From contig CALXVO010000001.1 of NCBI GenBank assembly GCA_944392065.1, positions 1-38,574 on the forward strand: 38,574 nucleotides of DNA, in the 5' to 3' direction. This DNA is from an uncultured Clostridia bacterium (GTDB taxonomy: Bacteria; Bacillota; Clostridia; TANB77; CAG-508). Below the pieces are notes generated by a model that saw only the letters and a program-made list of their open reading frames with translations, was not told the DNA's origin and ran no database searches. The position numbers and the translations under genes are program-made. Below, piece after piece: positions 14,698 to 15,070 of the stretch (its first letter is position 1; each line of letters starts with the position of its first letter).

Positions 14698-14726
14698 TTG
14701 ACTTTTTTGCTTAAAATTTGTATAAT
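14698..14726 (+). promoter_or_regulatory. Near-consensus sigma-A promoter on the plus strand (TTGACT-17-TATAAT)
   Basis: TTGACT is at 14698-14703, the spacer is 17 nt, and TATAAT is at 14721-14726. No credible plus-strand protein gene lies downstream. Confidence 0.5.
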
Positions 14727-14731
14727 AAGTA

Positions 14732-14816
14732 TAGGAAATGAAAGCCACAAAGTGGTTGCCGAATACGATTTTAAAATAAACCATTTACTCGCCAAAGCAG
14801 AATGGTTTATTTTTTA
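14732..14816 (+). ncRNA. Candidate ~85-nt small RNA, convergent with and 3'-overlapping the small hydrophobic-peptide gene (putative type I antitoxin)
   Basis: It starts about 7 nt after the 14721-14726 -10 box. It contains the hairpin AGCCAC-aaa-GUGGUU and ends in a 13-bp stem (14773-14785 / 14801-14813) followed by Ts. The ends are predicted, not measured. Confidence 0.4.
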
Positions 14817-14930
14817 TTGCCTATGTAATAAAATACAAATGATGATTAACAAGGCAACATTTATGATAGTCATTCCTACTAAACCAAAGAGAAGTAGGTA
14901 TGTAATAATTAATAATGCTGATTCTACCAT
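14814..14930 (-). CDS. 38-aa hydrophobic single-TM peptide (type I toxin-like): MVESALLIITYLLLFGLVGMTIINVALLIIICILLHRQ
   Basis: This ORF is below the track cutoff and was found by hand. The ATG at complement 14930 lies 5 nt after GGGGGUGG (complement of 14936-14943), and the stop TAA is the complement of 14814-16. The peptide is almost entirely hydrophobic with a short polar C-terminus. Confidence 0.45.
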   Translation of the reverse strand: MVESALLIITYLLLFGLVGMTIINVALLIIICILLHRQ

Positions 14931-15042
14931 ATTAACCACCCCCATATATCAGTCTCACAACTAAAAGTCGTGGAGTAGTTTGTAAACATCAAAGAGTTAA
15001 AGGTGGCAACGCACTCTGCTTATTTCATTTCCTATTGACAAT

Positions 15043-15070
15043 ACTATACAATATTTTTTTGAAAAAACAA
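15043..15070 (-). promoter_or_regulatory. Candidate promoter for the hydrophobic-peptide mRNA (TTGTTT-16-TATAGT)
   Basis: On the minus strand, TTGTTT is the complement of 15065-15070 and TATAGT the complement of 15043-15048. The -10 region and the first ~13 transcribed nt (AUAGGAAAUGAAA) repeat those of the plus-strand promoter at 14698-14743 in inverted orientation. Confidence 0.35.

Follow-up and report, generated by a model that had tools for sequence, protein, structure and literature searches.

New families of type I toxin–antitoxin systems are found regularly. The described systems that come closest to the locus studied here are par (Fst/RNA II) of Enterococcus faecalis pAD1, the Bacillus subtilis prophage systems txpA/RatA, bsrG/SR4, bsrE/SR5 and yonT/SR6, and the Clostridioides difficile pairs CD2517.1/RCd8, CD2907.1/RCd9 and CD0956.2/RCd10. 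Our locus is a cassette of about 430 bp between galE and an LCP gene of an uncultured Clostridia bacterium (assembly GCA_944392065.1, contig CALXVO010000001.1). It lies in a stretch of 38,574 nucleotides, which we call the window. An earlier note, made from these letters alone, had read the cassette as a gene for a hydrophobic 38-residue peptide on the minus strand, faced by a convergent small RNA (sRNA) on the plus strand. We read the sequence from 14400 to 15400 together with the listing of open reading frames (ORFs) and find every element of that description in its place. The observation is therefore confirmed, and the interpretation is supported as far as sequence analysis reaches.

In par, convergent promoters lie at the ends of a locus of about 400 bp, both transcripts share a bidirectional intrinsic terminator, and complementary loops are able to start the contact between the two RNAs (PMC7472228, PMC8594479). 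An intramolecular 5′ structure hides the Shine–Dalgarno sequence (SD), the toxin has about 33–38 residues and the small antisense RNA barely touches the reading frame (PMC7472228, PMC8594479). In all these respects the cassette is alike. The repeats DRa and DRb of par are, however, direct, which makes the 5′ ends of its RNAs complementary, and RNA II covers the start site of fst (PMC7472228). In the cassette the repeats are inverted, the 5′ ends are identical and no second pairing site rises above chance. The peptides differ as well, as the alignment of the cassette peptides contains no proline, no PXXXG(C) motif, no conserved tryptophan and no long charged tail. Having neither direct repeats nor an Fst-like peptide, the cassette is, judged by its sequence, not a member of the Fst/par family. 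The likeness to BsrG and Fst that the earlier note had drawn holds for size and architecture; it does not extend to a match in sequence family or to the peptide motifs of Fst.

The B. subtilis systems have their antisense RNA on the 3′ side and pair by the 3′ ends only, as the cassette would. Their SD lies in a short helix and their toxins have 30–59 residues, BsrG exactly 38 (PMC7430163). The antitoxin causes RNase III-dependent decay of the mRNA, and the loci are often borne on prophages (PMC7430163). Their overlaps are longer (114–120 nt or more, with sRNAs of 100–222 nt; PMC7430163) than the approximately 55 nt and 88 nt predicted for the cassette, and reach into the ORF, whereas the overlap in the cassette reaches the stop codon only. 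The duplicated 5′ leader of the cassette has no counterpart in these systems. We compared the cassette with this group by models, not pairwise with BsrG or TxpA, and found no Pfam-A or NCBIfam match at E <= 10 apart from noise. The C. difficile pairs come from the same class, Clostridia, and share with the cassette convergent overlapping transcripts, Sigma-A promoters and a sequestered ribosome-binding site in 5′ untranslated regions (UTRs) of 83–88 nt; some copies lie in prophages (PMC5961336). They differ in having toxins of 50–53 residues with a lysine-rich C-terminus, overlaps of 131–283 nt and CRISPR arrays nearby (PMC5961336), none of which applies to the cassette; in the cassette flanks examined no CRISPR array was noted.

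The peptide gene and its convergent small RNA

Within the window alone the evidence for the cassette is weak. Nine promoter-like sites were found in the region where 7.8 are expected from shuffled sequences, which is no excess. The decisive evidence is comparative and comes from 37 distinct cassette sequences of other organisms. Searches with the shared leader and with the peptide led to 52 related loci in at least 20 genomic contexts, and the 37 distinct sequences among them share the whole arrangement. The conserved module, defined as the block common to cassettes in unrelated contexts, spans 14669..15097 (minus strand) and carries two genes; in blastn alignments of the window with the contigs L172 and L162 the identity is 86–90% across these positions and the flanks differ. 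We have little doubt that this is a real, selected module of a peptide gene and an antisense sRNA gene. That the two form a true toxin–antitoxin pair which works through the overlap of its 3′ ends appears probable to us from the sequence. The cassette would then most likely represent a previously undescribed type I family, as an architectural variant within the known kind.

The putative toxin gene occupies 14814..14930 of the minus strand. It has 38 codons and a stop and encodes MVESALLIITYLLLFGLVGMTIINVALLIIICILLHRQ, with the ATG at 14930 and the stop codon at 14816–14814. The ORF listing starts from an upstream ATG and gives 43 residues, and a word-indexed protein search with this longer form had returned no match. 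Since an exhaustive HMMER search later gave 13 small homologues among 1.84 billion representative proteins (E-values 5e-11 to 2e-4), that negative was a matter of sensitivity. The 13 homologues are unnamed singletons, and the window peptide is missing from a set of 5.8 billion proteins. Some homologues carry mis-called N-terminal extensions which are translations of the conserved leader described below (IGNE corresponds to ATAGGAAATGAA).

Across the family the peptide is 37–39 residues long and follows the core M[VI]E[ST]ALL..I.YLLF[YF]GL[VI]G.TIIN[VI]AL.I....L[LS][HK][RK]Q. Variable sites are distributed over the three codon positions as 27/16/33. The median ratio of nonsynonymous to synonymous substitution rates (dN/dS) is 0.36, with 96% of the pairs below 1, and rises to 1.36 in the shifted frame. 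The homologues, this ratio and the largely conserved start codon and SD spacing bear out the earlier claim of a 38-codon hydrophobic ORF: on these measures the ORF is real and under purifying selection. AlphaFold2 predicts one uninterrupted helix from residue 2 to 37 (predicted local distance difference test 96). A conserved acidic Glu3 (MVES) stands at the N-terminus, Gly16 and a Thr-Ile-Ile-Asn24 stretch are conserved in what would be the middle of the membrane, and the short basic C-terminus ends in HRQ, HKQ or SK(Q). With these features the peptide has the size and the predicted topology of type I toxins (fewer than 60 residues, one hydrophobic helix, polar ends).

In one distinct form of the cassette (L193 773-971 and L194 1038-1236) the peptide ORF is frameshifted and reads MVDSYLINTITCFSTD up to a stop. 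Promoters, SD and sRNA are intact, and the sRNA still scores 84.7 bits. This copy may be an inactivated toxin gene or a sequencing error.

On the opposite strand a promoter TTGACT-17-TATAAT is present at 14698..14726 (plus), as had been proposed. With 11 of 12 consensus matches it is the best promoter of the region, and it is near to consensus throughout the family, with a mean of 11.6/12 and a flawless TTGACA-17-TATAAT in 27 of 38 cassettes. The predicted product is an antisense sRNA of about 88 nt at 14731..14818 (plus), the putative antitoxin; family members range from about 81 to 95 nt. It begins with AUAGGAAAUGAAA, followed by hairpin 1 (GCCAC/GUGGU), the sequence UUGCC, an A/U-rich linker and the terminator. 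Our covariance model R1 has a single match in the window, at 14731-14818 (87.8 bits, E = 2.8e-15), and finds one convergent sRNA beside each of the peptide ORFs searched (51 of 51 loci, 62–95 bits). As the peptide search had ignored the sRNA, this constant company argues that the sRNA is real.

RNAalifold folds the sRNA into two hairpins, and 11 of the 15 base pairs show compensatory changes. In hairpin 1, for example, CCAC/GUGG is replaced by ACAC/GUGU, CGCA/UGCG or CUAC/GUAG, and the terminator stem changes across the family from AAACCAUU to AACCGUU, AAGUCAUU, CGACACAU and ACACACUC. The window copy folds with a z score of -3.1 against shuffled sequences. The small plus-strand RNA of the earlier note is, by conservation and covariation, thus upheld. 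A coding function of the sRNA was considered and rejected, because insertions and deletions in hairpin 1 shift the frame and no ORF is conserved.

The terminator (14773..14813) is bidirectional. A perfect inverted repeat, 14773-14785 / 14801-14813, forms a 13-bp stem with a 15-nt loop, and the hairpin would be shared by the 3′ ends of both transcripts, as had been claimed; only there can the RNAs overlap. The loop, CAAAGCAG in one RNA and CUGCUUUG in the other, is conserved with an invariant A-GCA-A in its 3′ half, while the stem varies in a compensatory manner. On visual inspection, the sRNA direction has the richer U-tract. From the positions of promoters and terminator, the complementary region should comprise 14765..14820, a 3′–3′ overlap of about 55 nt which includes the terminator and the stop codon. 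A gene for a cis antisense RNA overlapping the toxin mRNA, as type I systems have, is accordingly present, at the level of sequence only.

The promoter of the toxin mRNA lies at 15043..15070 on the minus strand (−35 TTGTTT at 15070-15065, a 16-nt spacer, −10 TATAGT at 15048-15043). The form TTGnnT-16/17-TATAGT is kept in 37 of 38 unique cassettes and matches the consensus at 8.5 of 12 positions on average, compared with 11.6/12 for the sRNA promoter. As read from the sequence, a strong sRNA promoter set against a weak mRNA promoter is the classic asymmetry of type I systems. The mRNA probably starts near 15035 and would have a 5′ UTR of about 105 nt. The SD, GGGGGTGG in the DNA and GGGGGUGG in the RNA, is located at 14936..14943 (minus), 5 nt before the ATG. 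In the family it reads GGAGGUGG or GGGGGUGG, that is G(A/G)GGUGGU, and the ATG mostly follows after 5 nt, with 6 nt in L176, L177 and L149 and 4 nt in L193/L194. These minus-strand signals had all been named by the earlier note, and they are conserved in the family.

The note had further pointed out that a CCACC in the 5′ UTR (15002-15006) can pair with the SD. This motif is part of an anti-SD GUUGCCACC at 15002..15010 (minus) which is present in 28 of 30 UTRs, with single-base variants in L197 (GUCGCCACC) and L039 (GUUGCCACU), and which, in most of the family, is the element that the SD is chiefly predicted to pair with. A spacer of about 12–66 nt, usually with an internal hairpin, follows it. 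In the shortest member, L197, the UTR is reduced to a bare GCCACC...GGUGGU hairpin. The copy in the window deviates from this: its minimum-free-energy fold and its centroid pair ACUACUCC with GGGGGUGGUU, and 2% of the SD pairing goes to GUUGCCACC and the remainder to ACUACUCC. The latter is a second anti-SD at 14972..14979 (minus), beside the internal hairpin, which occurs in the subgroup with long UTRs only and there reads ACUAC(U)UCC at the homologous positions. Two anti-SDs in this subgroup suggest that the toxin mRNA may adopt alternative or metastable folds.

On average the SD is unpaired with a probability of 0.11, as against 0.34 with shuffled upstream sequence, and it is predicted to be paired in all 30 UTRs; the fold of the toxin mRNA of the window has a z score of -1.8 against shuffles. 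Sequestration of the SD is a prediction to which covariation lends no support since both partners are invariant. On these folds, translation of the toxin mRNA is probably throttled in cis by the paired SD.

Genomic contexts of the cassette

The cassette occurs in uncultured Clostridia of the gut that have a low GC content and are related to Clostridium sp. CAG:508 and CAG:567, and in addition on a phage contig. Of the loci, 47 were obtained from metagenomes by a scan with a peptide pattern, mostly from human gut, and three are viral. We found no match for the cassette in Rfam, Pfam, NCBIfam, PHROGs, PADLOC or the PDB sequences; no Rfam family, those of type I antitoxin sRNAs included, scored above noise.

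Many contexts are ordinary chromosomal ones. The cassette lies beside lysS (L158), a sigma factor gene (L163), spo0A (L173), folD (L176), ABC-transporter genes (L179, L182) and glmS (L196). Elsewhere it adjoins genes for an IS91-type Y2 transposase (L149), a PD-(D/E)XK transposase (L160), an SNF2 helicase (L185), an AAA_14/DUF4143 ATPase (L183) or a Schlafen/AlbA_2 protein (L157). On L173, L174, L175 and L196 (at about 2900-4200 of each) it stands directly downstream of a UPF0029 gene, then spo0A, and the downstream flanks differ. Four species keep the cassette at this site, hence the module can also be inherited stably at one chromosomal position. The contigs have a host GC content of 24–34%, with the exception of L154 (OFFJ01001637.1). 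There a low-GC block of 600 nt (777-1376), which contains a cassette and is 95–97% identical to L153, L155 and L157, is flanked by a patatin gene and by FecR/ECF-sigma-type genes in DNA of 43–49% GC. Either the assembly is chimeric, or the block has been transferred to a very different organism.

Among the viral loci, two phage contigs, L039 and L044, were found with a DNA pattern for the shared leader, and one further locus (L150, an IMG/VR contig) with the peptide pattern. The pattern GTGGTTGCC...GCCAAAGCA gave 99 matches in viral DNA, all of them chance apart from L039 and L044, and TAGGAAATGA...GTTGCCAC likewise gave chance matches only beyond these two. The cassettes of L039 and L044 are divergent homologues with the same sRNA 5′ end, compensatory changes in the stem and the same loop GCCAAAGCA. 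Their opposite strand encodes a 33-residue peptide, MGIILFLIYAWGFSLTINVALLAIIYIILSNKE, which shares TINVALL and is the most divergent member of the family. On L039 (IMGVR_UViG_3300045988_174626, 160-4863), and in the same way on L044, the cassette has a 66-residue holin-like ORF and an Amidase_2/PG_binding_1 endolysin gene on one side and a paralogous second endolysin gene on the other. Nearby lies a gene for a retropepsin-like protein that has a SEC-C motif.

One could conclude from the position amid holin and endolysin genes, the further viral copy L150 and weak sub-threshold PHROG matches, one of them to a holin family at E = 0.3, that the cassette is a phage-derived module. It would then encode a holin-like, antiholin-like, superinfection-exclusion or abortive-infection effector, and the chromosomal copies would be prophage remnants or morons. 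We regard this as quite improbable. Of the 52 loci, just 3 come from contigs with a viral classification, and the surroundings of L150 recur around copies on chromosomal contigs of 100–268 kb. Blastn searches of 50,697 GenBank phage records, as of the PLSDB plasmids, did not find the cassette, and its flanking genes are mostly housekeeping genes. A phage origin moreover overlaps with the toxin–antitoxin reading and does not exclude it.

The window is a surface-polysaccharide locus with its genes all on the minus strand, and the cassette sits inside the 628-nt gap between galE and the LCP gene. Metagenome contigs of the same species (L001-L005) are 100% identical to the window across the gap and are hence uninformative. 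Related uncultured Clostridia from GTDB were collected via the LCP protein. Three of them (L006, L007 and L038) keep galE directly upstream of LCP, with identities to the window of 92–94% for galE and 80–93% for LCP. Their gaps measure about 60–180 nt, compared with 628 nt in the window, and only the last ~40 nt, with the LCP promoter and ribosome-binding site, can be aligned. The cassette is absent from all three, and the covariance model R1 has no match there either. In the lineage of the window the cassette is therefore accessory at this site. What fills the gap is an acquired selfish or accessory module outside the polysaccharide pathway.

The gap also shows ~140 nt of AT-rich DNA (14529-14668) which separate the cassette from the LCP promoter and which neither the syntenic relatives nor other cassettes possess. 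In the LCP promoter itself, the ancestral −35 TTGCTA has become TTGTGT, and the extended −10 TGATATAAT is retained. Upstream of LCP, and pointing the same way as galE and LCP, the cassette offers a small ORF and then a terminator, much as a leader-peptide attenuator of this gene would. This possibility is practically negligible: the distribution already refutes it, given 20 or more contexts that have nothing to do with LCP, and the 60-nt gap of the relatives contains an LCP promoter of its own which the window keeps downstream of the cassette.

The empty sites in relatives, the occurrence of the block in many intergenic sites, the inverted repeats near both ends and the one copy possibly in foreign DNA of higher GC would also suit a non-coding mobile element resembling a miniature inverted-repeat transposable element, in which ORF and sRNA are fortuitous. 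We hold this to be very improbable. Variation in the ORF is specific to codon position, with the low dN/dS given above. Instead of being terminal, the repeats lie inside the block and comprise the −10 box and the transcribed leader; the conserved block is bounded by the two −35 regions, the comparison with an empty site reveals no target-site duplication, and the window holds a single copy.

Two observations concern other genes of the window. In the polysaccharide locus, a 741-residue fusion protein (18782-21007, minus strand) joins a polysaccharide pyruvyl transferase, a 4Fe-4S and an FrhB_FdhB_C (F420-hydrogenase beta-like) domain. GalE (15157-16170, minus strand) has 334 residues in the database and 337 as the GTG-start ORF of the listing; an exact-protein look-up of the longer form gave no record, because the database calls the shorter one.

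The inverted duplication and the identical leaders

The toxin mRNA begins with the same 13-mer as the sRNA: AUAGGAAAUGAAA is repeated exactly at 15023..15035 (minus). As DNA this 13-mer, ATAGGAAATGAAA, has just two occurrences in the entire 38.5-kb window, 14731-14743(+) and 15023-15035(-). The inverted duplication extends to 24-nt arms with 79% identity, and a further 15-nt arm at 80% spans the −10 boxes. The earlier note had spoken of inverted duplicates over about 50 bp. This length is roughly right, and promoter and leader are conserved and vary together, but the repeat is imperfect. As the repeats are inverted, both RNAs start with the same ~30 nt and do not have complementary leaders.

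In the family the shared leader consists of AUAGRAAAUGAG, a variable segment and GUUGCC, and in both RNAs few other parts are conserved as strongly. Lineage-specific variants are common to the two RNAs of one cassette, such as AUAAG in L176 and L177, GUCGCC in L197 and GUAGG in L196. The similarity of the leaders is 15.1 within and 12.2 between cassettes, and none of 2000 permutations reached 15.1; because the sequences are related, these values are descriptive only. Most simply, the antitoxin gene would have originated when the promoter and leader of the toxin gene were duplicated in inverted orientation. Drift plus gene conversion alone is an unlikely explanation of the leader since it is so strongly conserved.

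For the role of the leader, a common site for a protein or RNase, a shared operator, or a 5′–3′ fold-back in read-through toxin transcripts similar to hok fbi/tac are possible. Two other functions were ruled out. The leader is not an ORF, as its frames are not conserved (AUG AAA UAA in the window), the distance from SD to AUG is too short and many members have no GGA; this lack of GGA equally speaks against a CsrA-type site.

We offer as a tentative and rather unlikely extension that the antitoxin gene arose by inverted duplication and that the shared leader (AUAGRAAAUGAG...GUUGCC) is itself functional. One common factor, an RNase, an RNA-binding protein or a repressor, may recognise both RNAs, or the sRNA may compete with the 5′ end of the mRNA for the fold-back partner in read-through transcripts. 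If this were true, the toxin would be controlled by molecular mimicry of its leader in addition to antisense pairing. To our knowledge, no type I system has been reported to work through mimicry of the toxin leader.

Proposed mechanism and its weighing

We suggest that expression of the cassette proceeds in the following steps, in which transcription, pairing of the RNAs in vivo, the part of an RNase, toxicity and neutralisation are inferred from the sequence-level features described above. A weak sigma-A-type promoter would give rise to an mRNA of ~270 nt which encodes the 38-residue, single-helix membrane peptide. Pairing of its SD with the upstream anti-SDs, GUUGCCACC and here also ACUACUCC, would keep this mRNA poorly translatable. 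The much stronger convergent promoter would produce the ~88-nt sRNA, ending at the same bidirectional terminator. The two RNAs could then pair over ~55 nt, from the terminator stem-loop to the stop codon. By analogy with par and bsrE/SR5, the complementary terminator loops are the likely site of first contact. The duplex would expose the toxin mRNA to decay by an RNase III-type enzyme, as in txpA/RatA, bsrE/SR5 and yonT/SR6. Upon loss of the short-lived sRNA, synthesis of the peptide would damage the membrane or the cell envelope. The 3′–3′ overlap is the only complementarity between the RNAs, and for this reason we liken the cassette to txpA/RatA, bsrE/SR5 and yonT/SR6 and not to par.

Several points weigh against this reading. 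Between the 5′ part of the sRNA and the 5′ UTR or start of the mRNA, RNAduplex finds in no family member a pairing better than in shuffles (z from -1.6 to +1.4), and without such pairing at the translation start a direct translational control is unsupported. The overlap of ~55 nt is short and consists essentially of the terminator, compared with 114–134 nt in characterised 3′-overlap systems. The antisense model leaves the conserved identical leaders unexplained. Also, the polar C-terminal tail of the peptide has just 2–4 residues, many fewer than the lysine-rich tails of the C. difficile toxins or the charged tail of Fst, and copies which are stable beside housekeeping genes, as at spo0A in four species, would fit a non-toxic physiological role as well. 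Toxicity is hinted at only indirectly, by the frameshifted copy that keeps its sRNA and by the tight safeguards of expression.

It is hence conceivable that the cassette is no toxin–antitoxin system and that the peptide is a small non-toxic membrane protein, a regulator or an accessory subunit of a complex, which is tuned by its cis-antisense RNA. We consider this unlikely, though it is the alternative most to be reckoned with. The purifying selection and the invariant Gly16 and Asn24 suit a specific interaction as well as the formation of a pore, and the very short tail and the several copies that are stable in the core genome would agree with it. Against it stands the patchy presence of the cassette, which the closest relatives lack at the same locus, and its occurrence on phage and beside transposases. 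No neighbouring gene is conserved across the copies that could point to a partner. Moreover, a hidden SD combined with a weak promoter for the mRNA and a strong one for the sRNA is how a harmful product is typically kept in check. We therefore retain the toxin–antitoxin reading as the probable one.

If this reading is true, the cassette defines a type I toxin–antitoxin family of uncultured gut Clostridia with small, low-GC genomes. The family is clearly delimited and unannotated, as automated annotation misses the cassette, and it is widespread in a poorly studied gut clade. As a compact, self-contained unit of about 430 bp it is easily tested and might be developed into a device for counter-selection or RNA control in Clostridia. 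Finally, its identical, co-varying leaders, set beside the complementary repeats of par, would provide a natural experiment on the origin of antisense antitoxins and on what they need beyond pairing.

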